Shown here piece after piece: positions 1 through 57,819 of a stretch of DNA of 64,000 bases (the stretch's first letter is position 1; the number at the start of each line of letters is the position of its first letter). The notes below the pieces were generated by a model, which had not been told where the DNA came from, ran no database searches, and saw nothing but the letters and a program-made list of their open reading frames with translations. This DNA comes from Gemmatimonadota bacterium (GTDB taxonomy: Bacteria; Gemmatimonadota; Gemmatimonadetes; Longimicrobiales; RSA9). The DNA lies in contig SLCC01000066.1 in the NCBI GenBank assembly GCA_007126035.1, positions 1,104 through 65,103 on the forward strand, read 5' to 3'. The translations under genes and the position numbers were made by a program.

Positions 1-982
1 TCCGTTCGGTAACGGAGATCATCATGATGGCGATCACGCCTACTCCACCCACCAGCAGCGCCACGGACGAGAGAGCTATCATCACTATGAAGAACAGGCC
101 GGTGATGTTGTTGAACGTCTCCAAAACCTCTTCCTGTCTGATGATGGCGAAGTTGTTCTCGTCTCTGGGCCGGAGGCCGCGCATGACCCGCATGGTAGCA
201 ATGACCTGGTCCATGGCCTGCTCCTGGGTCGAGCCGTCCGCCGTCACGATCAGGGCGTAGAGCATACCATCCCAGGTCCGGAGATGCTTGAGCGACGCCG
301 TGTAGGGCACGACCGCGTAGTTAGTGGCCATCTCCCCGAATATGCTGGCCTGCGGCTCGAAGACGCCGATCACTGTGAATGGGATACCGTTGATCCGGAC
401 GGACCGCTGGATCGGGTCCAAGGCCCCGAACAACGACCTGGACAGAGGCCCGGACAGGACGACGACGGGGCTGGACGCCGACACATCGGTGGGCAGGAAG
501 TTGTGGCCGGCCACGAAGCTGCCCGTGGTGAACTCGTCCCAGCCGGCACTGTTGCCCGAGATGGTGACGCCGCCCACGGGTGAGCCGGCGGGTCCCTGCA
601 CGGACGCTGTCTGCTGCAGCTCCACAATGGCCGTCCGAACGTGGCTCAGCTCCGTCAGCCGGTGGACCTCGCTGGGGTGGACCGGTGGGTTCCGGCCCCA
701 GGCCGGCCCGGAGTGGCCGTTGATCTGGATCCCCATGAAGTTGTAGCGCACCACCATGAAGTTCTTCGGTCCCGCGGCTTCTATGCCCTCCATCGCCTCG
801 GCACGTATCCCGGCTATGGCGGCGCTCATTGTGACCACCGTGGCCACGCCTATGACTATGCCGAGGATCGTCATGACGGACCGGAACTTGTGGGCCCGTA
901 GCTGGTCCAGGGCGATGAGTATCGCCTCAGCGATCCGCTCGACCGCCGCCACGACCCGGTCCGCCAGTCGCTCAGGCCACAT
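1..982 (-). CDS. ABC transporter permease, MacB/FtsX family (5' part only; gene runs off left edge)
   Basis: Absent from the ORF track because there is no stop in the window. My reverse translation from the ATG (complement of 980-982) gives MWPERLADRVVAAVERIAEAILIALDQLRAHKFRSVMTILGIVIGVATVVTMSAAIAGIRAE... This is the typical N-terminal TM1 of MacB-type permeases and is paralogous to the 986-2227 and 16017-17225 products. The start lies 3 nt after the upstream permease stop. Confidence 0.8.
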   Translation of the reverse strand, partial: MWPERLADRVVAAVERIAEAILIALDQLRAHKFRSVMTILGIVIGVATVVTMSAAIAGIRAEAMEGIEAAGPKNFMVVRYNFMGIQINGHSGPAWGRNPPVHPSEVHRLTELSHVRTAIVELQQTASVQGPAGSPVGGVTISGNSAGWDEFTTGSFVAGHNFLPTDVSASSPVVVLSGPLSRSLFGALDPIQRSVRINGIPFTVIGVFEPQASIFGEMATNYAVVPYTASLKHLRTWDGMLYALIVTADGSTQEQAMDQVIATMRVMRGLRPRDENNFAIIRQEEVLETFNNITGLFFIVMIALSSVALLVGGVGVIAIMMISVTER

Positions 983-985
983 GGC

Positions 986-2227
986 TCACTCTGCCCTCAG
1001 GGCCACGACGGGGTCCAGACGGGACGCCCGTGACGCCGGGTACAGGCCGGCCAGCACGCCCACGACTATGCCCATACCGGCGGCCAGGGCCAGCCAGTGG
1101 TAGCCCACGGCGGCAGGCATGGGAGAAACCGCTTCAACCAGCTTCGCCAGCCCCAGCCCCAGCCCTATCCCGATGCTGGCGCCCACGAACGACAGTGTGC
1201 CGGACTCGACCAGGATCTGGAGCAGGACATCGCGACGTCGTGCGCCCACGGACTTGCGCATGCCTATCTCCTGCGTCCGCTCCACTACGGACATGAGCAT
1301 GATGTTCATGATCACCATGCCGCCCACCACCAGGGCGATGCCCACCAGGGCGGGGAAGGCGATGAAGAGGATGCGGCTCATGGTGGCCCAGAAGGCCATG
1401 GACTGGTCCTGTGTCTCGAGCTCGAAGTTGTTGGGCTGGTCAGGCCGTAGGCGGTTCCGTACCCGCATGATCGCCTCGACCTCCATCTTCGCCAGCTCCA
1501 GCGCCGTGGGGTCGTCCGCCTTGACCAGGATGTTGTCTACCACCCCACGAGGGTTGGTCATGCGGCCCATGGGCGAGCTGGCGGGCGCGATGGCGCGGTT
1601 GTCCAGGGACATGGTGAACAGGGTGCCCTGGGACTCGAGCACTCCGATCACCTCGAAGGACACGTCCCGGATCCGGACCGTCCTACCCAGAGGGTTCAGC
1701 GAGCCGAACAGCGTCTCGGCGGTTTCCGAGCCCAGCACCACGACTGGCAGCCCCGCTTCTGCCTCGAGCGGACCGAACAGCCTGCCCTCCGCCACGTCCC
1801 ACTCCCGGATCCGGAAGATCTCCGGCGATGCGGCGCTGAGCCATACGCCACTCACCTCCTCGCCCCGGACCGAGCGGGCGCGGCTCGTAGAGGAGCTCTC
1901 AATGGCTACGCGGGCCGGAACCGTCAATTGCTCCCGTATCGCCTCCGCGTCCTCGGTCCGGAGACGAGGCCGGCGTCGCCACTCCCGCCACTGCTCATCG
2001 CTCGGGTTCATCATCATGGACGGCTGGCGGCTCACGGTCAACGTGTTCAGGCCGAACAGCGACCGGGCGAAGTCCTCCTCCATGTACCGGTTCATGCCCT
2101 CCACGATGGTGACCACCGCGATGAGGAACATCACGCCGATGACCACACCGATGACGCTGAAGAAGCTCTTGAGCTTCTGGGCCCGGATCTGGGCGAACGC
2201 GAGACGGATGGCGTCCCGCAGGCTCAC
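986..2227 (-). CDS. ABC transporter permease, MacB/FtsX family
   Basis: 413-aa ORF. N-terminal TM ([26 protein letters not shown]), large periplasmic domain, and C-terminal FtsX TM bundle ending ...[18 protein letters not shown]. Overlaps the ATPase gene by 4 nt. Confidence 0.9.
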
Positions 2228-2928
2228 ACGGCTACCTGGGCGGCCTGGGTCTCGTCGCTCTCGATGAGGCCGTCCAGCAGCGTGATGCGGCGGTTGGCGT
2301 GCAGGGCCACATCGTGCTCGTGGGTCACCAGCAGGATGGTCTGGCCGCTGTCGTGGAGCTCGTCGAAAAGGGCCATGATCTCCGCGCCGGTGCGGCTGTC
2401 CAGGTTACCCGTCGGCTCGTCCGCCAGCAGGATCGCAGGATCGTTGACCAGCGCCCTTGCCACCGCCACCCGTTGCTTCTGGCCGCCGGACAGCTCGCTG
2501 GGCCGGTGGGTCATGCGATCCGCCAACCCCACCCGCTCCAGCACGTGCTCCGCCCGCTCGCGCCGTTCGCGGGCGCCGGTCCCGCCATAGATCAACGGCA
2601 GCTCCACGTTGTGCAGCGCCGTGGCCCGGGGCAGCAGGTTGAACGTCTGGAAGACGAACCCGATCTCGCGGTTGCGGATGGCCGCCAGCTGGTCGTCGTT
2701 GAGGCGTGCCACGGCCGTCCCGTTCAGCCAGTATTCCCCGGCCGTCGGCGTGTCGAGGCAGCCGATGAGATTCATGAACGTGGACTTCCCGGACCCCGAC
2801 GGGCCCATGAGAGCCACGTACTCGTTCCTCTCTATCTCCACGTCGATGCCACGGAGCGCGTAGATGATCTCCGCGCCCATTACGTATTCCTTCGAGAGCC
2901 CCTTCGTACGGATGATCGCCTGCTTCAT
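2224..2928 (-). CDS. ABC transporter ATP-binding protein (MacB/LolD-like)
   Basis: Walker [10 protein letters not shown], signature [15 protein letters not shown], Walker [14 protein letters not shown]-loop LVTHE. Start trimmed from ORF-track 3003 to ATG 2928 ([11 protein letters not shown]...), 7 nt after the adaptor stop. Confidence 0.9.
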
Positions 2929-2935
2929 CTCCACC

Positions 2936-4231
2936 TCACTCCGGCTTCGGTGTGGTCGTACCATTACGCCTCGCACCCGGTAGGACGCGCACGGCGCCGC
3001 CATCGTTCAATCCGCGGACGGCTTCGTACGGACCGGCCACGATGCTGTCTCCCACGCCGAGCCCCCCCAGGACCTCGAAGTGCTCCCGGCCCGTTATGCC
3101 CACGTCGACCCTGGTGAACCGTGCGCGGCCGTCCCGGATGACGAACACGCCTTCCACGTCGTCATCCTCGGGGCTGATGCCAGAAACGGGCACTTCACGG
3201 GTGGAGCCGAGGTCGTCCTCGAGGCTTTCCAGCGACGAGCGCTCCCGGACGGTGAGGGCGATGATGGGGATGCCCAGCGCTTCTTCCCGCCTGGCCGTCA
3301 CTATCTCGGCCGTAGTCGACAGGTCGGGTCGGATCCCCAGCGGTGGGTCGTTCAGCGTGATGACGATCTCGAAGTCCACGCCCTGGGACTGCTGGCCGCC
3401 CCGGCTCTGGGGCGGGACCGTGGAGCTGTGGCTGATCTTGGTCACCCGTCCCGCGAACCGCTGCCGGGGGAAGGCGTCGATGGTGAGCGAGGTGCTGTCA
3501 CCGAGACTGATGCCGGGCACGTCCGTCTCGTCGGCCCTGACCACCGCCTCCATGACCGACAGGTCGCTCACCGTGAGCAGCAGGCTGCCCGGGTTGTTCA
3601 TCGTACCCACGATGGCCGTTTCACCCTCCTCGATGTTCAGGCGGGTGATCACCCCGTTGATGGGCGCGCGGATGACCGACTTGGCCAGCTGGTCCTCTGC
3701 CTCCTGGAGCATGGCCCGTGCGATCTCCACGCCGTGCAGCGCCGCCTCATAGAGCGCCTTCTGCACCTGCGCCTGCGTCTCCGTTTCCTCGAACTGCTGG
3801 GGACTGATCAGGTTCGGGTCGCGGCTCCGCATCTCCGTCGCCCGTCGCAAAGCCTGCTCCGTCTGGAGCAGTGACGCCCTGGCCTGGGCCTCACGCGCCA
3901 GCGACTCGCTGACTCCGGCCCGCGCCCGTGCCACCGCCGCCTCGTACTGTGTAGGGTCGATGCGTAGCAGGACCTGGCCCCGCTCGACCCCGTCTCCTTC
4001 CTGCACGTACAGCCCCGTTACCCGGCCCATGATGTCGGATTGCACGTCCACCGAGACCCGGGGCTGGATCCAACCGTTGGCCCGGACCACTGACTCCAGC
4101 CGCCGCAGCTCCACCGTCTCGACCCGGACCTCGACGCCGGCCTCGCCACGGGTGTTGAGCCCGGCGATGCCACCACCTGCCAGGGCGACCACCCCGCCCA
4201 CCGCCAGGACGATCTTCGTCTTTCGCTTCAT
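2936..4231 (-). CDS. Efflux periplasmic adaptor, HlyD/MacA family
   Basis: 431 aa. N-terminal membrane anchor ([19 protein letters not shown]), coiled-coil region, [18 protein letters not shown] lipoyl-like motif, beta-barrel C-terminus. Sits between the TolC and ABC genes. Confidence 0.85.
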
Positions 4232-4240
4232 TGCTTTGCC

Positions 4241-5740
4241 TCAGTCCTCAGGTATGGTCAGCGGCTGGCCAGTAGCGGCCTCCAGGGCCGTGAGCGCTTC
4301 CTGGAACGCGTAGACACCGAGCAGGTGAGACCTGTCCGCCCGGGCCTTCATCGTCTCCGCCTCCAGTAACTCTATGAACGACGCTACGCCCACGCTGTAG
4401 CGTTCCCTGGCAAGCCGGAGCTGGTCGTCTGCCAGCTCCCGGTTCCGCTCCTCCAGCTGGACCGCCCGGTAGGCGGCGCGCAACGAGCCCAGCGCGGCCA
4501 GCACGTCCGCCCTGACCCGCAGCTGCTCGCCCCGCAGGCGATGGGCTGCCGCTTCCCGGTTGGCGTGGGCCCGCTCGAGTTGGCGCTGCCGGTTCAGCCC
4601 CTGGAAGACCGGGACGGACACGCCCACCGACAGGGAGACAGGCTCACTGTCGAAGTTGAATGGGAACTGCCGGTTCTGGTCCAGTATCCGCGACCGCATG
4701 GTCTCAGTGAACCGGAACTGGGAGCAGTCCACCGGCGGCATGGGCGGGTTCAGCCGACCCAGCAGGTCGTTGGTCTCGATGCACTGGAGGGCCGCGTTCG
4801 CCATCTGCTCTTCCGCCCGGTCGATCAGGTACTGGTCGCTGCCGACCCGGCGAGTGTAGCCGGCGATACCGGTGGACATGGACAACCGGGGCCAGAACGC
4901 GCTGCGCGCCATCCCAACCTCGGAGTCGGACGCCGCCGCGGTGGCCCGCGCCACCTCGAGCTCCGGCTGCCCGCCCATGGCCATGCGTATGAGGGACTCT
5001 TTCTGCCAGTGCGGCTCGAAGACACCGACGTCCGTGGTGAGTTCGACGTCGGTATCCAGGTCCACGCCGATGACCTGCAGGAGTCGCAGTCGCTCCGTCT
5101 CGTAGCCTGACTCGGCGCGGAGCAGCTCGACCTCGGCGCGACCTCGCTCGACCTCAGCCTGCCGGACCTCGAGCAGCGTCACCGACTCGACGGCATGCCG
5201 CGCCTCGGCGAGGCCCAGGTTGCCTTCAGCCCGGTCCAGCTCCGCGCGTGCCAGGTCCACGGCGTCGCGCATCCGCAGGGCGGCCAGGTACTGGCGTGTC
5301 ACACCGGACCTCAGGTTCTGGTCCGCCACGTCTATGCGGGCCCGGACCACGTCCCGGGACGCTCGCTCCTGGCCCAACCGGTAGAACGTGGAGCCATCGA
5401 GCGACAGTTGGAGGCCCAGGCTGTAGCTCGAGAAGTAGTAGGAGGGCGTCTCGCCCAGGCCGATGTCACCGGAGGTGAAGTTGCCCAGCCGGGCCTGGCC
5501 GCTGCCCTGATAGCTCATCCCGCCACCGACGGACGCCGTGGGCAGGAAGGCCGCGTACGCCGACCGCACTCCCCACTCGGCCACCGGCTCCTCGCCCAGC
5601 TGGATCCGGTAGTCGGGGTTGTGCTCCCGGGCCAGGGCAATGGCCTGTTCCAGGCTCAGTCGTGGCGGCGGGGCCTGGGCCTGGGCTGCGAGCGGGAACA
5701 GCAGGAAGGCCAGGAACGAAAGCAGAGACGTTCTCTTCAT
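4241..5740 (-). CDS. TolC-family outer membrane efflux protein
   Basis: 499 aa. Signal peptide MKRTSLLSFLAFLLFPLAAQAQA. Long helical repeats with the typical LEQAIALAREHNPDYR opening and a duplicated OEP architecture. Confidence 0.85.
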   Translation of the reverse strand: MKRTSLLSFLAFLLFPLAAQAQAPPPRLSLEQAIALAREHNPDYRIQLGEEPVAEWGVRSAYAAFLPTASVGGGMSYQGSGQARLGNFTSGDIGLGETPSYYFSSYSLGLQLSLDGSTFYRLGQERASRDVVRARIDVADQNLRSGVTRQYLAALRMRDAVDLARAELDRAEGNLGLAEARHAVESVTLLEVRQAEVERGRAEVELLRAESGYETERLRLLQVIGVDLDTDVELTTDVGVFEPHWQKESLIRMAMGGQPELEVARATAAASDSEVGMARSAFWPRLSMSTGIAGYTRRVGSDQYLIDRAEEQMANAALQCIETNDLLGRLNPPMPPVDCSQFRFTETMRSRILDQNRQFPFNFDSEPVSLSVGVSVPVFQGLNRQRQLERAHANREAAAHRLRGEQLRVRADVLAALGSLRAAYRAVQLEERNRELADDQLRLARERYSVGVASFIELLEAETMKARADRSHLLGVYAFQEALTALEAATGQPLTIPED

Positions 5741-5869
5741 CGTGTATCGATCCAGTCAGCCGGGGGGTGTCCGTTGTCGTCCTCCGTACGCCGGCGCCGC
5801 TGGGCCGGTTTCAGGCCACCGTGGCGCGGCTGGTAGGATTCGCGTCGCCCGGTCAAGGACGGCAGTGGG

Positions 5870-6559
5870 TCAGTCGGGCAGGGCCAGGCGCTCCGCCAGG
5901 AACCCGGTCTCCGGGATGCTGAGGCGCAGGAGCTTGCCCTGGTCGTCCACCCAGAGCGTGCGTCGGGCCATGCCGTTCGCCTCGAAGCTGATCCGGCGGG
6001 CCGAGACCCGCTGCCCTGCCACGTCGATGTTCTCACGACCCACCTCCCGCACGGTGGCTGTGACCTGTCGGTACAGGCGGGGAACGATCACGGGAGTGGC
6101 GACACCGTCACGGGCGGCCACTACGAAGTGGTGGTGGTGCGTCACGTCGTCGTCCACCACGACGGCACGTTCCCCGACGAGGTACTCCCGCATGGATTCA
6201 CCTGTGGGTGAGATGACCTGCGCCCGGAACCGGTTGCCCGTGAGCTGGCCTCGCACGGTGACCCGCTCGGGCCCGGTGCTCTCCACCTGGTAGGTCGACG
6301 GGCGATGGCCGGTCCCGTCGACCTGGAGCAGGGCTCTGGTCTGATAGCCCGTGTCGAGGGTGATCCGGCCCTGTGCCACCACGGTGGCGCCTGTGCCGCT
6401 GCCGGTCTGCCGGATGCTGAAGGTCTCGGTACCTGTCGGCGCACCTCGCACGGACAGGCGGAAAGAACCTTCGTCCAGGATCACGGCCTGCGCCGAGCCG
6501 GCGGGGGGTAGGACCAGGAACGCCGCTGCCGCTACCGCCAGAGCTGTACGAACGGACAT
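5870..6559 (-). CDS. Hypothetical secreted protein
   Basis: Start moved to ATG 6559, preceded by GGAGG 5 nt upstream on the minus strand. Signal peptide MSVRTALAVAAAAFLVLPPAGSAQA. Beta-rich, with no family I recognise. Confidence 0.5.
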   Translation of the reverse strand: MSVRTALAVAAAAFLVLPPAGSAQAVILDEGSFRLSVRGAPTGTETFSIRQTGSGTGATVVAQGRITLDTGYQTRALLQVDGTGHRPSTYQVESTGPERVTVRGQLTGNRFRAQVISPTGESMREYLVGERAVVVDDDVTHHHHFVVAARDGVATPVIVPRLYRQVTATVREVGRENIDVAGQRVSARRISFEANGMARRTLWVDDQGKLLRLSIPETGFLAERLALPD

Positions 6560-6632
6560 CCGGACCTCCGGTTGGGTTGCAGCAGTGTACACCGCGGCGA
6601 GTGTGGAGTTCGGCACCGTCGCCGTCTGACCA

Positions 6633-7376
6633 TCACAGGGTGTCCGACGCCTGATCCGGCCGGGTGAAGACGGCGCGGCGGATCACGTCGAGGATACGCT
6701 GGTAGATCAACTCGCCCTTCTCCCCGGCGGCCAGGGACGGGCGGCCGACGGAGCCGGTGCCGCCGACGGGCGGGGCGGGCATTGCGCCGCGCATGTAGCG
6801 TCGGAACTCTTCCGGTGCAAGGTTGAAGTCACGGGCGCGATCCATCCGTACACGGTCAGGGTAGAGGTATAGCATGAGGGACGTTTCGGCCTCGCCGGCG
6901 TGCTCGGCCGACTGGTCCCCTTCGACGAGGTCGTGGATGGGCACGTCCCAGATGTCCACGACCCGGATACGGGATGCACTGGCGAGCAGAGAGGCGAGGG
7001 CCTCGAGGTGGGGGTCGTGACGATGCGCAGTGAGGATGATGAACTCGGTGACGCCATGGCGTTCCCAGCTCTCTATCAGCTCGTTCAGGGCCCGGTGCAG
7101 CGTCTTGCGGCTGAGCGTTGCGGTGCCGGCGTATGCACGCTCGGTCTCCACGTTGACGCCGAAGTTGAAAGTGGGGGCCAGCAGGACCCCGAGCTCTTGT
7201 GACAGGTCGGACGCGATGCGGCGAACGATGAGCATGTTGCTACCGAGGGGCAGGTGTGGGCCGTGCTGCTCGAGGGCGCCCACGGGCACGATCAGCCTAG
7301 GGTCGCGGGCCAGGTGTGCGGCCACGTCGACCCAGCTCAACTCGTCCAGTCCGAGGCAATGGTTCCCGCTGCTCAT
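6633..7376 (-). CDS. Creatininase-family amidohydrolase
   Basis: 247 aa. Family hallmarks LIVPVGALEQHGPHLPLGSN, ILTAHRHD and AEHAGEAETSLMLYL. Confidence 0.8.
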   Translation of the reverse strand: MSSGNHCLGLDELSWVDVAAHLARDPRLIVPVGALEQHGPHLPLGSNMLIVRRIASDLSQELGVLLAPTFNFGVNVETERAYAGTATLSRKTLHRALNELIESWERHGVTEFIILTAHRHDPHLEALASLLASASRIRVVDIWDVPIHDLVEGDQSAEHAGEAETSLMLYLYPDRVRMDRARDFNLAPEEFRRYMRGAMPAPPVGGTGSVGRPSLAAGEKGELIYQRILDVIRRAVFTRPDQASDTL

Positions 7377-7385
7377 GGGGACATT

Positions 7386-10300
7386 ATGATGCGTACATCG
7401 CCGGCGCGCACGGTGTGGGTGCTGAGCCTGGGCTCGCTCCTGGCCCTGGTGGTGTGGACACGTACCCTGTCAGGCTGGGTGTTGCCACTGGCTCTCCTGC
7501 TCCTGACTGCCGGCGCGGTCGTCGAGCTCCGGCGGCCGCGACCGAAGGGCTGGCGGCTGGCGGAGCCGCTGGCGCTAGCGGTGCTGGGCCTGGCACTCCT
7601 GGCCGGGGTGGGGACCTCGATACGGCTCGAGGCCGGGGAGCGGGCCTGGCCCACGGTCCAGGCCGCCAGCGAGCATCGGCTGGCATCCCGTCTCGAGGAC
7701 CGGGTGCAGGCGCTGGTGCAGCGTGGCGGCGCGGCAGCCGAGCTGGCGGCGGAGCTGGTCGAGGGGTGGCTGCCGGAAACGGTCGGGGTGGGGCGGTCAC
7801 CAGATCGCTGGTTCGACGAGCTGGAGTCCATTCGCAAGCGCACTGGCGTCGATGCGGTGGCCCTGCTGGAGTCGGACGGTCGGCCCGTGGCCTGGGCCGG
7901 TGACCATCGGGGCCAGATACCCCGGCAGGTACTGGCCGATGGACAGCGGGTGGTCTACCCTGGCGGCACCCTCTTCTCCTACCTCTACAGCGTGACCCCT
8001 GCGGACGCCGGGCTCCGGGCGGTCAGTGCCGTGCTGGTACAGGCCGGGCCGCCGGTGCGGGGGACGACTGGCTCGGTGGCCGACCGGTTCGAAGCGGTTA
8101 CCGGTCAGCGGCCGCGGTTCGGCCACGGGTCCTCGCTCGGGGCCCAGTGGACGCTCGAGCTGGACGGCCAGCCGGTGCTCCACGCCCGCTGGCCGGCCCT
8201 GAACCACGGGGAGTGGCGCAGCGACGTGTCCCGGACCGGTCGCCGCGTGGTCTTCGGGCTGGCGCTGGTAGCCCTGGGGCTCCTCTGGGCCAGCTGGCTC
8301 AGGCCTCTCGGCGACAGGAGCTGGCCTGCCGGGCTGGTGCCCATGGGCGCACTCAGCCTCACGCTGATCCTGGCGCCGCTGCGGCAGATCCTGGGTATGG
8401 AGCGGCTCTTCTCCCCGGGATTCTTCCTGCTGCCCATACCTGGCGACTTCCTCATCGAAGGCGTCATCGTGGTCCTGCTGCCGCTGGCGGCGTTGGTGTC
8501 CACCATGAAGCCCGCCCCCGTACGGCCGCCCGAGCTCTGGCTGCGCCTGGGCATTGGGGCCGCCTTGGCCGGCGGTGCCTTCGCCGTGGGCGCAGGGCTC
8601 ATGGCCGCCAGTGCCGGCCATCCAATGCTCACGGGCGGCGGGCCGCTCTGGTACGTGCTGATGCCCACCACGGTAGTGCTGCTGGCGGTGCTGACTGCGC
8701 CCTTGATCCCCAGGACCACCAGGCCGGATGGTGGACGGACGCCCCTTGTGTTCGGCTCGGCCGCCGTGGTGCTATCCATGGCGCTGGCCTGGGGGCTCAC
8801 CGCCTGGTGGCGGCCTGACGGACCGCCTGCAACGCCCATCCTGCTGCTGTGGTCCGTGCCGTTCCTGTTGGCCGCACGGGCCGTGTCCGCCTATGTCGGC
8901 CGGGGCGAGAGGCTCCTGCGTTGGCTGGCCGTGGGCTGGCTCGCCTCCACCGCCGTGGTCCCGCACCTGTGGACCACCAGCCAGGCGACACGGCTGGCGG
9001 CGGCAGAGACGGAGGTGGCCGCTTTCGGCGCCCGGATGGACCCCTATCTGACCTACCTGCTGGTGCGCTTCGGCGAGGAGCTCCACCGTGCCGACGACCG
9101 GGGCGAGCAGGGCGCTGACCTCCTCTACGAGGCCTGGGTCGAGAGCGGGCTGGCCAGTGCGCCCTACCCGCTCGAGATCACCCTGTGGGACGAAGAGCTT
9201 CAGCCGGCGGCGCACCTGCCTCTGGGCGTCCGGCTGGACCCGGGTGGGCCGGCGGACCTGGAGCTCCGGGAGATTTTGCGGACCACCGTGGTGCGGGACG
9301 AGCCGGAAAATATCCCCGCCACTGGCGGCGGAGTGGGTCGCTTCCTCACTGTTCCCCTGGCTGGAGGCAGCGCCGTCTCGGTGGCGGTGGCACCCCGCGC
9401 CAGCCTCAGGCCCGCCTCGCCACTGGCCATGCTGATGGAGGGGTCCGGCGATGGTGTCCAGCTCGAGCTGCTCCCCGGCGACGGGCTCCTGACACACGAG
9501 GACGCGGTCTGGCGTCGCACTGCGGACGGCTGGCGCAAGGAGATGATCCTGCGGGAGGGAACGGACGTCTACCACGCCCATCTCGATCTCCGCGTCCCGC
9601 CCGCCGGCGTCCGTCTGGCCCGGGGCGTGCTCCTGGTTGGGCTGGCGCTGACGGTCTTCGTAGGGCTGTGGGTGGTAGGCCGAACCGCCCAGGGCGATCC
9701 GCCCTCGCCGCCAGGGGGTTGGCTCGGCTGGTTCGGCGGCTTCCGCGCCCGCTTGATCGTGGCCCTGTTCGCCTTCTTCCTGCTGCCCACGGCAGTATTC
9801 GGCTGGGCCGCCTACCGGGCGCTGGCCGAGGAAGTGACCCGGGCCGCTCGACAGGTGGCGGAGCGCGGGGTGGTCCACGCCGCCGCCGCCATGCCGGACG
9901 GGGTCCTGACCGAGACCGCGCGGAGGGCCGGGGAGGACGTGCTGTACTACCACCACGGCCTCCTCCATAGCGCCTCGCTGCCCGAGGCCCAGGAACTGGG
10001 GCTCTACAGCGCCTGGATGCCTGCCGGTCTCTACAGCGAGCTGCGGAGCGGCGAGGCCATGGGCGGCTCCGAGATGGGCGAGCTGGCGGGTCGATCCTAC
10101 ATGGTTTCCTACCGCCGGCTGGGCAATCCCTTCGAGGCGGTAGCGGTACCCGTGTGGCTGGCGGCCAGGGACGTGGAGGTCAGACAGCAGGAATTCGCCC
10201 ACCTGGTCCTGTTCGGACTACTCATGGGCGGACTGCTCTCTTTAATGCTCTCGGTACGGGTGGGCCGGACCCTGGCACGCCCCATCGCCGAGCTGCGCCG

Positions 10301-26753: not shown

Positions 26754-27611
26754 ATGAGTTTCACCGGCACGCGCAAAGGCAAGAATGACGAAAGCTCACT
26801 CGACCAGTACCTCAAGGAGATCAGCGCCTATAAGCTGCTGACCCGTGACCAGGAGGTCGAGCTCGCCAAGCACATCAAGCAGGGCGACGACGAGGCCCTC
26901 GACACGCTGGTCCGGTCGAACCTCCGGTTCGTCGTGTCCGTCGCCAAAAAGTACCAGAACCAGGGCGTGGCCCTCTCCGACCTCATCAACGAGGGCAACC
27001 TGGGCCTGATACGCGCTGCCCATAAGTTCGACGAGACCAAGGGGATCAAGTTCATCTCCTATGCGGTGTGGTGGATCCGCCAGGCCATCCTCCAGGCACT
27101 GGCCGAACAGAGCCGTATCGTACGCGTACCCCTCAACCGGGCCGGCGCGCTGCACCGCATCGGAAAACGCTCCGCCCTGCTGCTCCAGGAGCTGGGCCGG
27201 GAGCCCACCGTCGAAGAGTTGGCGGACGAACTGGACATCTCCGAGGACGAGGTGCGGAGGACATTGTCGCTCTCCCAAACGCACCTCTCCCTGGACGCAC
27301 CGCTCACCCCAGGCGAGGACAATCGTCTGCTCGACTACCTCCCCGACCAGTTCTCACCGGGGCCAGACGACGAGGCCTTCGACCGCGCACTCCTCAATAC
27401 CGTCGAAGATGCCCTGGGAACACTCAAGGAGCGAGAGTCCAGGATCCTGCGACTCTACTTCGGCCTCGACGGCCACGAGCCCATGACCCTGGAGGAAATC
27501 GGCTCCCTCCTCGGCGTTACTCGGGAACGGGTGAGGCAGATCAAGGAGAAGGCCCTGCTCCGGCTGCGCCACGCGAGTCGGGCGCGCTTCCTGGAAACGT
27601 TTATGCGGTGA
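26754..27611 (+). CDS. RNA polymerase sigma factor, RpoD/SigA family (compact, about 285 aa)
   Basis: Start trimmed to ATG 26754. Region 2 DLINEGNLGLIRAAHKFDETKGIKFISYAVWWIRQAI. Region 4 TLEEIGSLLGVTRERVRQIKEKALLRLR. Confidence 0.9.
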   Translation: MSFTGTRKGKNDESSLDQYLKEISAYKLLTRDQEVELAKHIKQGDDEALDTLVRSNLRFVVSVAKKYQNQGVALSDLINEGNLGLIRAAHKFDETKGIKFISYAVWWIRQAILQALAEQSRIVRVPLNRAGALHRIGKRSALLLQELGREPTVEELADELDISEDEVRRTLSLSQTHLSLDAPLTPGEDNRLLDYLPDQFSPGPDDEAFDRALLNTVEDALGTLKERESRILRLYFGLDGHEPMTLEEIGSLLGVTRERVRQIKEKALLRLRHASRARFLETFMR

Positions 27612-27613
27612 TG

Positions 27614-27632
27614 GCCCGGCCGTTGGCCGGGC
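27614..27632 (+). terminator. GC hairpin immediately after the sigma-factor stop (no U-tract)
   Basis: GCCCGGCC-GTT-GGCCGGGC. Perfect 8-bp stem starting 3 nt after TGA 27609-27611. Confidence 0.35.
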
Positions 27633-27637
27633 AGGAG

Positions 27638-27913
27638 GGCGCGGCCCCTGGCGGGGCCACGCAGGTGGGCTCGGCTTCGCCTCGCAGGGGGGCGCGGCCC
27701 TGGCGGGCCACGCATGTGGGCGCCCTTCGGGCGCAATGGCTCGGCTTCGCCTCGCAAGGGGGGCGCGGCCCTGGCGGGCCACGCATGTGGGCGCCCTTCG
27801 GGCGCAATGGCTCGGCTTCGCCTCGCAGGGGGGCGCGGCCCTGGCGGGCCACGCATGTGGGCGCCCTTCGGGCGCAATGGCTCCTCGGCTTCGCCTCTCA
27901 GGGAGGCGCGGCC
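27638..27913. repeat. Tandem array of a 70-73 bp GC-rich hairpin-bearing unit (one short, three full, one partial copy)
   Basis: Unit: GGCGCGGCCCTGGCGGGCCACGCATGTGGGCGCCCTTCGGGCGCAATGGCTCGGCTTCGCCTCGCAGGGG. Copy starts are 27638 (53 nt, internal 19-nt deletion), 27691, 27762, 27832 and 27905 (9 nt only). Periods are 71, 70 and 73 bp. Confidence 0.9.
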
Positions 27914-28581
27914 TCGTAGCCCAGCAAGGTGGCCTCGAGCCGAACCGTGCCCGCCGGGACGGCCGGGAACGTGAAGTTGCCGTGGCCGTCGGCGATGCGC
28001 AGCGGCCCGTCCGCGCCGAGTCGCACGCTCACCCCGGCCAGTGGCCGCTCCGTCTCCCCGTCCACCACGCGGCCGCTGAGCCGTGCCGGGCCACCGGCGG
28101 CCGTCGCCAGTGTCAGCGAAAGATCGACCCGGTGGACCTCGCCTTCCGCCGTGACCAGCCGACCCGTGACGTCGGCGGTGGCGCGGGCGAAGCGAACGGG
28201 ATCTCCGACCCCCAGGCCACGCACCTCCACAACCCGACCGATGGTCCCCCGGACCGATGCCACTTCCGCCCTCGAGCGCCAATCGGCGACGAGGCTACGG
28301 GGGGCATGGATCCGCCAGGAGCGGACGATCCACGCGTCTTTGGGCAGGCGCTCGAACTCCAGAGTGCCTCCGGCGGCCGCCGCGGTCAGGCACCCGCCGC
28401 GCACGTACCGGTACTCTTGCGACCGGAGTGCTGCCGTCGCCACGTCCAGCCAGAGGGTGCCGGCCACGGCGGGTTGGCAGGACCGGGCGACCGGCAGGTG
28501 GGCTCTGGAATGGATAGCTGCGGAGCAGCCGGCGGGGACGCACCCGCTCCACCAGGACGGTGCCCGAACGCACGTCCACAT
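27898..28581 (-). CDS. Hypothetical protein with a C-terminal carboxypeptidase-regulatory-like (CarboxypepD_reg) beta-sandwich; N-terminus uncertain or possibly frameshifted
   Basis: C-terminus LSGRVVDGETERPLAGVSVRLGADGPLRIADGHGNFTFPAVPAGTVRLEATLLGYE is the typical CarboxypepD_reg pattern. The N-terminus from ATG 28581 is W/C-rich and unconvincing. See the finding on the frame switch. Confidence 0.55.
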   Translation of the reverse strand: MWTCVRAPSWWSGCVPAGCSAAIHSRAHLPVARSCQPAVAGTLWLDVATAALRSQEYRYVRGGCLTAAAAGGTLEFERLPKDAWIVRSWRIHAPRSLVADWRSRAEVASVRGTIGRVVEVRGLGVGDPVRFARATADVTGRLVTAEGEVHRVDLSLTLATAAGGPARLSGRVVDGETERPLAGVSVRLGADGPLRIADGHGNFTFPAVPAGTVRLEATLLGYEAAPP

Positions 28582-28697
28582 CTCGCTCGATGACGGCTGT
28601 GCGGAACAGGACGTAGGGCGCCGCCTCGGTCAGCACCCGCCTGCGAAGCCGCCAGGGGGCACCGCCCGCCTGCCCGGCAAAGCCGCGCCCTCGGCGC

Positions 28698-28726
28698 TTG
28701 ACACCCGCCCCCCTTCTGGATATCCT
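28698..28726 (+). promoter_or_regulatory. Candidate sigma-70-type promoter of rplM-rpsI
   Basis: TTGACA (28698-28703), 17-nt spacer, TATCCT (28721-28726). Lies about 50 nt upstream of the rplM ATG. Confidence 0.35.
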
Positions 28727-28776
28727 TGAAAGCTGTTCGCCTGGGGCACCTGTGCCCGTGACTCACGAGATCCGAG

Positions 28777-29205
28777 ATGAAGACGTACACACCGAAAGTC
28801 ACCGAGATCGAGCGGAAATGGTGGGTCGTGGATGCGGAGGACGCGATCCTCGGCCGCCTGGCCAGCCGTGTCGCGCAGGTCTTGCGCGGCAAGCATAAGC
28901 CCATGTGGGCACCGCACATGGACACTGGCGACTACGTGATAGTGGTCAACGCGGACAAGGTCCGGCTGACGGGGAAGAAGGAAGAGCAGAAGACCTACTT
29001 CCGTCACACGGGCTACATGGGTGGGGACAAGCACATACCCTTCCGCAAGATGCAGGAGGAGCATCCTGAGCGGGTGATCGAGCTCGCGGTGAAGGGGATG
29101 TTGCCGAAGAACAACCTTGGCCGCTTGATGCGGAAGAAGCTGAAGGTGTACGCGGGCGTGGAGCATGCCCACGAGGCGCAGCAGCCGGAGAGACTGGAGA
29201 TCTGA
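28777..29205 (+). CDS. rplM: 50S ribosomal protein L13
   Basis: [42 protein letters not shown]... 142 aa. Confidence 0.95.
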
Positions 29206-29603: not shown

Positions 29604-29810
29604 TCGTCAGGTGCAACGCCTGCTGGACCGCGCAGGTTCGCTCCTCTGGGAGTGGCCTCATGGTATCAGGATGAAGTGGTCGGTCGGTTCAGCCACGGAG
29701 TAGCGAGAAGAGAAAATCACACACCGACCGGACGCGGCGCCGGGGTCCCCGATGGGGCGGCGCCGCGGGGGAAGGCGGTGGACGAGAGAACCCGCGGAGT
29801 GAGAGAACGA

Positions 29811-30788
29811 ATGGCAGTCGCGCCGGAGATCAAGGACCTTCTGGAAGCCGGTGTCCATTTCGGGCACCAGAGCAGCCGCTGGAACCCGAAGATGCGTCAG
29901 TACATCTTCGCCGCCCGCAACGGCATCCACATCATCGACCTGCAGAAGACGCACCGCCTGTTGCAGGAGGCGCAGAAGACGGTGCACGACACGGTCACGG
30001 CTGGCAACCGCGTCCTGTTCGTCTGCACCAAGCGCCAGCTCCGGCAGATCGTGGAGCAGGAGGCGGAGCGGTGCGGCGCGTTCTACGTGACGGAGCGCTG
30101 GCTCGGGGGGATGCTGACCAACTTCCAGACGATCAAGCAGCAGATCCGGCGGCTCAAGGAGCTGGAGCGGGGGATCGAGGAAGGCGCCTACGAGTTCTAC
30201 ACGAAGAAGGAGCAGCTTCTGCTCGAGCGCGAGCGTGAGAAGCTCAACAAGTACCTGGTGGGCGTGAAGGACATGGGTAGGCTGCCGGGTGCCATCTTCG
30301 CTGTGGATGCGCGCAAGGAGTCCATTGCCATCAGGGAGGCGAACAAGCTGGGCATCCCGGTCATCGCCATCACGGACACGAACACCGACCCGGACGTGAT
30401 CGACTACCCGATCCCGGGCAACGATGACGCGATCCGTTCGGTAGCGCTCATCACCGGCGCCATCGCCGACGCCATCGAGCAGGCTCGGCGGGAGATGCCG
30501 GAGGACGTGGTGCGCGAGGACGAGGGTGGGGTGACCTATTCCACCGAGTTGGGAGCTCAGGAGGTCGAGGAGCGGCCGGGCGCGAAGAAGCCGAAGCGTC
30601 GGCCGAAGCGGCGTCGCCCGCGGCCGGAGGTGATAGCTCAGGTCCGTGCGGGTGGGGAGGCGTCGGCCGGGGAGCCGGCCAGCACGGAGCCGGCCAGCAC
30701 GGAGCCGGCCGGGGAGCCGGCCGGAGAGCCGGCCAGCACGGAGCCGGAGGGCGAGGAGAAGGAGCCCGAGGCCGGCGAAGAAGCTTAG
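29811..30788 (+). CDS. rpsB: 30S ribosomal protein S2 with an acidic, repetitive C-terminal extension
   Basis: Start trimmed to ATG 29811 ([28 protein letters not shown]). Motifs GGMLTNFQT and [14 protein letters not shown]. About 75 extra C-terminal residues rich in EPAST/EPAG repeats. Confidence 0.95.
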
Positions 30789-56631: not shown

Positions 56632-57819
56632 ATGCGCGTTTACGAAGTAGCGAAAGAGTTCGACGTTCCAGCGGACCAGATGATCCAGCTCCTGCGGGAG
56701 ATGGGCGAGGCGGTGCGTTCGGAGGCCTCCCCGGTCAATGACTCGGCCGTAGCCAAGCTGCGGGCCCGGTTCGAGCGTCACCGGCGGGCCGGCACTACCG
56801 ATGTGTCCGAGGTGGTCGAGGCCGCTATCGAGGATGCGCAGGTGCCGGTGCGTCGCCGTCGCCGTCGTCGCCGGACAGAAATGCCCGAAGCCGAGGCGGA
56901 GGCTGGCGCGGCCGGGCTGGAGGCCGGGCTGGAGGCCGGGCTGGAGGCCGAGCCGGCGGAAGGTCCGGAGCCGGAGGTGGCGGAGCCGGAGGTGGCCGCT
57001 GAGGCGCCGGCGCGGCCCGAGCCGACAGAAGCGGAAGAAGTCGTCGCAGAGCCGGTAGTCCCGGAAGATGACCAGGCGCCTGCGGCCGAAGAGGTCGAAG
57101 TGGAAGAGGCGGAGGAAGCGGAAGCGCCTGCCGTCGAGGCCGTGGTGGCAGAGGAGGAGGCGGAGGCGGAAGAACCGGCGGCACCCGCTGAGGCGGAGGC
57201 GGTGGCAGAGGAGGCGGCGGAGGCGGAAGACGTCGCGGTCGACGAGGATGTGGTCGAGGCTGAGGTGGTCGAGGCTGAGGAGGTCGAGGCTGAGGTGGTC
57301 GAGGAAGAGGCTTTGGAAGCGCCAGCGCCCCGACCTCCTCACGCCGAGCCCGTGGAGCCGGTGGCGGAGGAGGACCAGGAGGAGCTTGCTGCGGCCGCCC
57401 CGGACGTGGACGCCGGGGAGGCGGACCAGGAGCGGGCCAAGGAGCGACGCGAGAAGCCGAAGCGCCGGCCGAAGCGGGCCTCGGAGGGCATGCCCGGCCT
57501 GGCGCCGGCAGCGAGCGCCGGCCCGGGAGGCAAGGTCCGGATCCAGGCGGAAGGGTATACGCCGGACGGCCGCCCGCGACGGGACAAGAAGAAGAAGCGT
57601 CGGCAACGTGTGGACCAGGGCGCTGTGCAGGAGAATGTCCAGCGCGTCATGGCGGAGATCCAGGCGGGCACCGGCGGCCGGAAGCGGCGCAGGTCTCGCC
57701 ACGATTCCGAGTCCCGCCAGCAGGAGGCGGCGGAGCGCGAGCGGCGAGCAGTGGAGGAGGCGACCACCGTGAGGGTCAACGAGTTCCTCACGGTCGCCGA
57801 GCTGGCGGAGTTGGTCTAG
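56632..57819 (+). CDS. infB: Translation initiation factor IF-2, N-terminal part (ends at in-frame TAG 57817-57819)
   Basis: IF2_N motif MRVYEVAKEFDVPADQMIQLLREMG. Long acidic A/E/V/P low-complexity region, then a K/R-rich segment. Ends ...VRVNEFLTVAELAELV-TAG in the middle of the second IF2_N-type segment. Confidence 0.9.
   Translation: MRVYEVAKEFDVPADQMIQLLREMGEAVRSEASPVNDSAVAKLRARFERHRRAGTTDVSEVVEAAIEDAQVPVRRRRRRRRTEMPEAEAEAGAAGLEAGLEAGLEAEPAEGPEPEVAEPEVAAEAPARPEPTEAEEVVAEPVVPEDDQAPAAEEVEVEEAEEAEAPAVEAVVAEEEAEAEEPAAPAEAEAVAEEAAEAEDVAVDEDVVEAEVVEAEEVEAEVVEEEALEAPAPRPPHAEPVEPVAEEDQEELAAAAPDVDAGEADQERAKERREKPKRRPKRASEGMPGLAPAASAGPGGKVRIQAEGYTPDGRPRRDKKKKRRQRVDQGAVQENVQRVMAEIQAGTGGRKRRRSRHDSESRQQEAAERERRAVEEATTVRVNEFLTVAELAELV

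Follow-up and report, generated by a model that had tools for sequence, protein, structure and literature searches.

We analysed a 64-kb stretch of DNA from a Gemmatimonadota bacterium (order Longimicrobiales; contig SLCC01000066.1) in which a 70-nt tandem array lies directly past the stop codon of a sigma-70 family gene. This whole stretch, and not the array, is called the window below, and all window coordinates refer to it. At the level of sequence, comparison with related loci shows the array to be the left arm, in expanded form, of a spacer that is bound to one locus, evolves fast, and is built from hairpin modules; a clade of uncultured Longimicrobiales carries this spacer between the RpoD-like sigma gene and rplM. 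The modules read forward after the sigma stop and as reverse complements (CCNCC-TGCGAG...CGAGC) before the -35 box of rplM, so that the spacer is one long imperfect palindrome, with up to about a dozen modules per arm.

The relatives compared here are sigma-to-rplM spacers from loci (numbered with an L) whose sigma proteins are 92–94 per cent identical to that of the window. Their sigma genes are 58–62 per cent identical to the window gene at third codon positions, which indicates deeply diverged lineages with synonymous sites near saturation. Because the spacer stands beside an essential and slowly evolving gene pair, its orthology is certain. Arrays of a single module type occupy this same spacer in most of the lineages examined. 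The module is about 22–26 nt long and consists of a GGNGG linker, GCTCG, a perfect inner stem of 1–5 bp with a 3–4-nt loop, CTCGC, and a closing A. Past the sigma stop, it is arranged as follows:

L071: array of 21-nt units, at least 4 copies.
L163: array of 22-nt units, 5 copies.
L161: array of 25-nt units, 6 copies.
L070: array of 46-nt two-module units, about 3 copies.
L067 and L068: run of differing perfect hairpins with AGGAGG between them.

A covariance model (CM) of the module gave 78 matches at E <= 0.1 in 188 kb of related loci, and 77 of these fell inside the sigma–rplM spacer, those of the left arm on the plus strand and those of the right arm on the minus strand (L067, L068, L070, L155, L161–L164, L170–L172). 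Inverted arms of tandem subrepeats, the layout of foldback elements, are thus present. The only module cluster beyond the spacer lies at L165 1805–1881 (CM score 25.9 bits) and includes 29 nt at 96.6 per cent identity to the right arm of L161 and L164. When folded, the 435-nt palindrome of L068 reaches −311.6 kcal/mol (z −13.3) and that of L070 has a z-score of −4.75; the minimal form, in L155, is a single long hairpin (z −3.0). The position of the arms is also shared. A GC-rich hairpin begins 2 nt past the sigma stop in the window; all the lineages examined, L157 excepted, have one at a similar place, and the right arm directly abuts the -35 box of rplM in all lineages apart from strains bearing an insertion sequence (IS). 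A search of metagenome contigs with the sigma protein found only more distant relatives (at most 86 per cent identity); among the twenty closest of those loci (L074–L094), most had lost the sigma–rplM synteny and none carried modules.

In the window itself, Tandem Repeats Finder (TRF) reported a repeat at 27668–27913 with a period of 70, 3.5 copies, 96 per cent matches, and a score of 442, by far the strongest tandem repeat of the window, which has a GC content of 68 per cent. A 43-mer covering two of the hairpins occurs exactly three times (27692, 27763, 27833), with zero occurrences expected from 100 shuffles, and nhmmer found no further copies of the 70-nt unit elsewhere in the window. Most of what the initial annotation had read from the letters alone therefore stands: the tandem array is real, its units start at 27691, 27762, and 27832 (71, 70, and 73 nt), a 53-nt copy at 27638 lacks the ~19-nt GGCGCCCTTCGGGCGCAAT hairpin (GCGCCC-TTC-GGGCGC) and has a GGCCCC/GGGGCC stem, a 9-nt stub (GGCGCGGCC) occupies 27905–27913, and the stop codon of a minus-strand open reading frame (ORF), TCA (TGA on the minus strand), lies in repeat-derived sequence at 27898–27900. 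Its view of the array as non-coding agrees with periods of 70, 71, and 73 nt here and of 21–25 or 46 nt in the relatives. The two hairpins that it counted per unit have to be raised to three, the addition being a weaker one, GCTCG-gc-TTC-gc-CTCGC, which is the module common to the relatives. The parts of the two arms in the window are:

27614–27632 (+): first hairpin past the sigma stop, GCCCGGCC-GTT-GGCCGGGC, with an AGGAGG linker next to it and no U-tract (from sequence and fold).
27633–27667 (+): diverged module b', GCGCG-gcccc-TGGC-ggggc-CACGCA + GGTGG (from sequence and unit listing).
27668–27881 (+): three higher-order repeat units of 71, 70, and 73 nt in TRF phase (from TRF, repeat listing, and the three 43-mers).
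Within each unit (+): module a, GCTCG-gc-TTC-gc-CTCGCA + GGGGGG (CM matches).
Within each unit (+): module b, GCGCG-gccc-TGGC-gggc-CACGCA + TGTGG (read by eye).
Within each unit (+): module c, GGCG-ccc-TTC-ggg-CGCA + ATGG (read by eye).
27882–27913 (+): degenerate terminal module a', with a CTC insertion, CTCTCA, and a GGGAGG linker (nhmmer partial match at 27884–27915).
28636–28692 (−): degenerate right-arm modules in reverse complement (CCCGCCTGCGAAGCC..., CCCGCCTGCCCGGCAAAGCCGCGCCC), from inverted repeats and comparison with the right arms of L161–L164.

With b and c assigned by eye, the 70-nt unit seems to consist of three diverged modules (a, b, c) amplified together as a higher-order repeat. 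Run on the window with its filters off, the CM found the three a modules only (27–34 bits), the next best match having 14.7 bits; it gave one b copy only 10.6 bits and listed neither the remaining copies of b nor any of c. Module b' forms the 5' part of the 53-nt short copy (27638–27690), in which hairpin c is missing. At the other end, the 9-nt start of a further b module follows a' within 27882–27913, the segment that also holds the stop of the minus-strand ORF. Both of these edge copies (27633–27667 and 27882–27913) diverge more than the central ones. The units follow one another head to tail, without unique spacers between them, which separates the array from CRISPR arrays. With its period of 70 it is a head-to-tail intergenic repeat in the 40–100 bp range, as are variable-number tandem repeats or MIRU-like minisatellites. 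Across the spacer, the right arm at 28636–28692 is complementary to the outer left arm at 27623–27648 (inverted repeat I1: 26 nt, 85 per cent), and further inverted repeats connect the two arms (I19, 11 nt, 100 per cent; I4–I9).

The modules show signs of constraint on both pairing and sequence. All thirty-six distinct modules compared across several lineages have an unchanged core, GCTC...CTCGCA (36/36), and the flanking mismatches T.C/C.T (G.A/A.G on the other strand) are almost never repaired. The inner-stem pair 10–23 is G-C in twenty-two modules and C-G in fourteen, with none unpaired. Its covariation score is 0.215 versus 0.102 in shuffles (0/500 shuffles reach 0.215), and slid controls collapse. 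Of 53 distinct units extracted, 52 have an inner sequence closed at its outermost position by at least one Watson-Crick pair, and the stem averages 2.09 bp versus 0.46 bp in shuffled sequence. Together with the invariant core, the covariation indicates that hairpin formation is maintained and that the specific sequence is maintained as well. In size and shape the module is a 20–40 nt imperfect extragenic palindrome, as are repetitive extragenic palindromic (REP) sequences. The initial annotation had made a similar argument from one change, the base gained by both arms of the stem in the short copy. That pairing is kept is borne out by the thirty-six-module covariation and by the 52 of 53 units, and the indel fits this pattern, but as proof of selection a single compensatory indel is weak evidence, since template switching can create and maintain hairpins, and in quasipalindromes can make such changes without selection (PMC8794818, PMC7202029). 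Covariation across lineages is the stronger argument for pairing.

Outside this core, the spacer turns over rapidly. Between strains whose sigma proteins are identical, the type of module, its copy number, and the inserted DNA vary. L170 and L171, which are 98.5 per cent identical in sigma, have different arrays and differ in the presence of an IS after the right arm; L067 and L068 differ by one 68-nt block; and array copy number differs between L171 and L172 and among L161–L164, which makes the polymorphism clear in the relatives. In L173 the spacer has collapsed, with the first left half-module fused to the last right half-module to give a single perfect hairpin. The DNA enclosed by the arms varies too: a pseudogene fragment fills this space in the window, while L161–L164 and L170–L172 have a YjbR gene of 123–128 aa. 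The arms also enclose a YjbR gene in L175, and some strains with identical sigma have the gene where others do not. In four loci (L164, L171–L173), an IS encoding a helix-turn-helix (HTH) and an rve-type transposase comes directly after the right arm, in place of the rplM promoter. Since it replaces the -35 region, rplM in these strains must use another promoter. This IS (HTH_23 + rve_3 transposase, ~360 aa) sits exactly at the right-arm end (L171 3510–4858, L172 3484–4586, L164 4076–4198, L173 2892–2992). A group II intron had been considered for the insertion beside the right arm in L171 and was rejected, the insertion being this IS.

The array had initially been described as wedged between convergent genes. 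In the relatives it sits between co-directional genes (sigma, then rplM), and the supposed convergent coding sequence of the window is, to judge from its DNA matches, a dead and decayed fragment lying between the arms of the palindrome. The features that flank or fill the spacer are:

26754–27611 (+): sigma-70 family gene, 285 aa, regions 1.2, 2, 3, and 4 (Pfam), stop TGA at 27609–27611.
27908–28637 (−): pseudogene fragment of ~730 bp from a CarboxypepD_reg/Plug paralog, called as a 189-aa coding sequence (27898–28467) in public assemblies.
28698–28776 (+): rplM–rpsI promoter (TTGACA, 17 nt, TATCCT) and conserved 5' leader (promoter scans; conserved in 11 loci).

A word-indexed protein search with the minus-strand ORF found only the ORF itself. 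An exhaustive search returned 2,232 relatives, many of them ~800 aa long, and the idea of an orphan gene was rejected: the match begins ~260 residues into these proteins, so the ORF is an internal piece of one. The best match is P0122 (782 aa, with four CarboxypepD_reg domains and one Plug domain), at 81 per cent identity over residues 257–374 and 533–612 (BLASTP). With blastn, window positions 27908–28146, 28140–28494, and 28492–28637 on the minus strand match three separated blocks of the 782-aa gene in L165 at 79–86 per cent, which indicates two internal deletions and a frameshift. The fragment is without approximately the first 155 codons and the last 170 codons of that gene, and the Pfam domain at the C-terminus of the ORF is cut off at position 61 of 82. 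The ORF ends in repeat-derived sequence because its reading frame simply continues into the repeat until it meets a stop. It retains a coding-like pattern of GC content at third codon positions, and its decay therefore looks recent. The intact paralog is found on other contigs of the same samples. The copy in L165 (ENA ERZ27301262 k141_1140789, 1–9744) is a 782-aa gene at 5102–7450, on the same contig as the module cluster mentioned above. That contig also carries a Fic/MazE toxin–antitoxin pair, a group II intron maturase fragment, and a second CarboxypepD_reg gene. This region, rich in mobile elements, may have exchanged DNA with the sigma–rplM spacer.

The exact sigma product of the window is on record in ENA and NCBI contigs. 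JGI names its close homologs 'RNA polymerase primary sigma factor', and the NCBI names lead to Longimicrobiales or Gemmatimonadetes. Downstream of the whole spacer lies the rplM–rpsI–rpsB–tsf operon, with a consensus-like promoter at 28698–28726. The 5' leader of rplM (28727–28776) has equivalents in L067, L073, L154, L155, L157, L161, L162, and L170. It consists of a AAAGCTGTTTCGC box, a hairpin (GGGGC-loop-GCCC) with varying stem sequence, and then ACGAGATC; it is conserved across lineages whose synonymous sites are saturated and has no Rfam match even at E <= 5. It may be an undescribed L13/S9 ribosomal-protein leader in Gemmatimonadota. Further into the operon, the 3' end of rpsB (30664–30747; the gene spans 29652–30788) is made of in-frame 12/15-nt tandem repeats that encode an acidic S2 tail of (A/E)GEPAST type. 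The length of S2 differs between samples, with 325 aa in L001 and L004 and 336 aa in L005 and L006.

The number of units in the window was compared with other public assemblies, which contain the same locus at 99.9 per cent identity or more. In GCA_007120925.1 (NCBI), one contig ends and another starts within the array. Each matches the window on its own side of the break, and the two alignments overlap at window positions 27707–27806; this is consistent with at least three units, and both contigs include a unit with a one-base variant (CAAGGGGGG). Of seven Logan contigs, which come from independent runs, six begin at one shared k-mer in the last unit and the seventh begins further in. For this branch k-mer to be shared, the array must contain at least two units. 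In an ENA k141 assembly there is one full unit and the sequence is 141 nt shorter, through de Bruijn collapse or true polymorphism, so the counts for the species itself are one versus at least three, where the one may be such a collapse. The single unit and the breaking of short-read contigs within the array are what one would expect if the copy number, or the array itself, came from mis-assembly. We regard this as extremely unlikely. The unit and its one-base variant are common to independent assemblies, the contig ends are consistent with at least three units, the Logan unitigs call for at least two, and the same module forms arrays in many unrelated assemblies, among them L067, seemingly a long-read assembly (it has frameshifted gene calls). 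The array is not an artefact, and the comparison of assemblies secures its exact count only in part.

Our preferred reading, held tentatively and at a little less than an even chance, is that the array acts as a transcribed multi-hairpin barrier in the 3'-UTR or intercistronic part of the sigma mRNA, and that it expands by slippage and template switching. The left arm would be transcribed together with sigma, since no promoter was predicted between sigma and YjbR in the YjbR-carrying relatives and the YjbR ATG stands a few bases past the last G-rich linker, which is its apparent ribosome-binding site. REPs stabilise upstream mRNA. The stack of GC-rich hairpins could likewise slow or block 3'-to-5' exonucleases, as REP/BIME clusters do inside operons, and could partly insulate the strong downstream ribosomal-protein promoter. 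Where both arms are on one transcript, they may form a long duplex and so a possible target for RNase III. Copy number, arm symmetry, expansion, contraction, and the collapse in L173 could all come from replication slippage and intrastrand template switching at hairpins, and capture of DNA between the arms would fit break repair at a fragile palindrome. The suggestion in the initial annotation of a terminator array does not hold in the canonical sense: no terminator-like site was found in window 27400–28900 or in L161 3300–4300, none of the hairpins is followed by a U-tract, and the array is probably read through in relatives. Read-through of this kind would mean that it is not a strong terminator, in agreement with the missing U-tracts.

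Several observations weigh against a transcribed barrier. Hairpins that lack a U-tract make poor intrinsic terminators, for mycobacterial RNA polymerase at least (PMC3993855), and with no U-tracts here true termination is doubtful. Spacers without modules (L157, L073, L074) indicate that the modules are dispensable. Single modules in the relatives are weak (−5 to −9.5 kcal/mol) and no better than shuffles, and the array-level z-scores of the relatives are modest. The invariant T.C/C.T mismatch suggests a sequence-specific reader rather than a role for any hairpin. Moreover, the plus strand of the window unit does not form three clean hairpins (z −0.5), because its G-rich linkers compete for pairing, whereas the minus strand folds into exactly three (z −2.8, 90 per cent of the ensemble). 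The whole array behaves alike: z is −5.2 to −5.7 for the minus strand, and for the plus strand −1.4 to −2.5. Such folding would suit a minus-strand RNA, either antisense or the 3' end of a pseudogene transcript, whose three-hairpin units regulate the 3' end of the sigma mRNA as a small or antisense regulator. The extended stem of hairpin b (CGCGGCCC/GGGCCACG) also has a C.A mismatch on the plus strand where the minus strand has a U.G wobble, and the weak Rfam matches are on the minus strand only. We find this very unlikely, since no minus-strand promoter was predicted around the window array, the minus-strand ORF is a 5'-truncated pseudogene, and the relatives encode nothing on that strand and have no consistent strand preference. 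Indeed, a rule by which the outward-reading strand always folds better was rejected, as right-arm arrays do not favour either strand consistently. No Rfam family was reached in the whole window at the gathering threshold, and under relaxed conditions the best match, chrB-a on the minus strand, scored 26.7 bits, far under its gathering score of 43.9.

The spacer could instead be a functionless by-product, a permissive site where a quasipalindrome churns by slippage, template switching, breakage, and repair, and where mutation rather than selection makes the symmetry. The extreme turnover among near-identical strains, the complete loss of modules in some lineages (L157, L073), the collapse to one hairpin in L173, the junk DNA and IS captured in or beside the spacer, and the known ability of template switching to perfect hairpins (PMC8794818) are all as this account predicts. 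We nonetheless consider it rather unlikely, because GCTCG...CTCGCA with its G-rich linker persists in the same spacer across lineages with 58–62 per cent third-position identity, where unconstrained sequence would be unrecognisable unless some mechanism keeps regenerating the module. That same persistence, of an invariant, mismatch-bearing core across saturated synonymous divergence, is the single feature to hint at anything more specific. The module might then be read by a dedicated factor, with the mirror arms as a programmed element, a proposal to which we give a small chance. The recognition features would be the GCTCG/CTCGCA core, the tandem mismatch that is never repaired (G.A/A.G on the opposite strand), and the G-rich linkers. 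In one version the arms would pair in the read-through transcript and RNase III would excise, or regulate, the product of the DNA between them, as in pre-rRNA stalks. In the other, the spacer would be a foldback-like recombination site beside the housekeeping sigma gene that repeatedly acquires YjbR, IS, and gene fragments.

Sequence-specific recognition could also take place on duplex DNA, in an iteron-like or PHO-box-like protein-binding array through which a regulator or nucleoid protein adjusts the expression of ribosomal proteins or sigma. The sequence GCTCG/CTCGCA is invariant beyond what a mere hairpin needs, CTCG half-sites recur upstream of the rplM promoter every ~10–13 bp (about one helical turn in the 21–25-nt units), and the right arm adjoins the rplM -35 box. 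We give this little credence: it leaves unexplained the inner-stem covariation, with no unpaired module, and the variable inner length of 5–14 nt; modules b and c of the window were amplified though they have lost the CTCG core; and copy number is unconstrained. A mobile family of REP/BIME/REPIN or foldback type, copied by a RAYT-like or other single-strand DNA transposase, with the spacer as one unusually large cluster, would account for the REP-like character of the modules, which are short, imperfectly palindromic, and marked by a conserved mismatch, for the inverted orientation of the arms, as in REPINs and BIMEs (PMC3337134, PMC3116915), for a second module locus in L165, and for DNA between the arms that varies by lineage. 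It is quite unlikely on the distribution of copies. The initial annotation had proposed a REP-like array, which in the sense of a dispersed family is not supported by the CM results, with no other match in the 64-kb window beyond the weak one at 14.7 bits and a single match outside the spacer in the related loci. Over these ~250 kb in all (the 64-kb window and 188 kb of related loci), the modules do not make up a dispersed family of the REP, BIME, or REPIN kind. An exact 35-mer had zero matches in JGI metagenomes, and a scan of viral contigs for two adjacent modules found only two matches, both coding and by chance. Scanning genome contigs with GGCCACGCN{4,30}CTCGGCTTCGCCTC gave 55 chance-type matches, for the most part in coding sequence of unrelated taxa, and the source species contributed none. 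A RAYT transposase was not noticed (no systematic search was made), and neither were target-site duplications (no search was made), the locus being fixed in every lineage examined.

By analogy, the array would work most like REP/BIME clusters and resembles MIRU-type minisatellites, and in the ~250 kb searched it shows the dispersal of neither. It has in common with REP, BIME, and REPIN sequences the GC-rich imperfect palindromes, the extragenic or intercistronic position, the clustering in both orientations, and a conserved stem imperfection, and a role as a 3'-end mRNA stabiliser or partial transcription barrier is plausible for it as for REPs and BIMEs. REPs and REPINs number tens to hundreds in each genome and are linked with a RAYT transposase (PMC3116915, PMC3337134), whereas here nearly all copies are in one spacer, the modules within an arm share one orientation instead of alternating, and reading them brought no GTAG-type 5' tetranucleotide to notice. 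The MIRU-type minisatellites of Mycobacterium tuberculosis, also from a high-GC genome, are intergenic tandem repeats of 40–100 bp with strain-variable copy number (PMC3635867). Copy number varies between strains among the relatives here as well, but MIRUs are spread over many loci and have no mirror arms, while this array is confined to one locus, is palindromic, and has a hairpin sub-module of ~24 nt.

The U-less inverted-repeat 'terminators' of Streptomyces and Mycobacterium type are similar in having a GC-rich hairpin directly past the stop codon and no U-tract, and the minimal spacers of L155 and L173 are, like them, one long hairpin. They differ from the present spacer in that it has expanded to arrays and is probably read through; U-less termination is itself disputed (PMC3993855). 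Three diverged monomers apparently amplified together, with edge copies more diverged, recall the higher-order repeats of satellite DNA, but the array here spans ~300 bp in a bacterial intergenic spacer and the analogy is one of process only. Eukaryotic foldback (FB) transposons consist of inverted arms of tandem short repeats in variable number, with nothing or variable DNA between them. The likeness is one of architecture only; no evidence of mobility was seen here, the locus being fixed.

If our preferred reading of a transcribed barrier that expands by slippage and template switching is right, the spacer is a compact natural example of a terminator-type hairpin growing into a palindromic minisatellite, with higher-order amplification, mirror arms, collapse to one hairpin, and capture of genes or fragments all visible as steps across strains. 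It also provides a strain-level marker for uncultured Longimicrobiales, and it carries a warning for annotation, as the public 189-aa coding sequence is a pseudogene with a stop codon supplied by the repeat. A core conserved despite extreme turnover poses the question of whether a sequence-specific reader or a generative mechanism keeps it. The effect on thinking beyond bacterial repeats and genome stability is likely to be small.

Two further roles were considered and rejected. A CsrA sponge would use CAGGA linkers, and GGA occurs in L067, L068, and the edge modules of the window but is absent from most linkers (GGCGG, GGGGG). A replication origin or terminus would be marked by a change in the sign of the GC skew, and none was seen save in the near-zero first 8 kb, far from the array; there is also no switch of gene strand at the sigma–rplM locus, and by GC skew the plus strand has leading-strand polarity.

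Other repeats were seen in passing. In L034 (CAJUSK010000011.1, a Lachnospiraceae metagenome-assembled genome), an intergenic tandem array on the minus strand at ~4740–5290 has a period of ~115 nt and at least 4.5 copies. Its unit contains GGCCACGCAG..GCTCGGCTTCGCCTCGC, in common with the window unit, as well as a second hairpin (GGGCTTCGCCC), a palindrome, and a terminator-like end with a run of T. Small transcription units, unrelated to the spacer, may make up this array. A GCTTCGC mini-hairpin motif recurs in other chance matches (L014, L026, L046, L029, L064). Last, window 56910–57310 is dense in perfect and imperfect tandem repeats (periods 12, 15, 18, and 57) rich in GAGGCG and GGAGGT, and probably encodes a low-complexity acidic protein segment.

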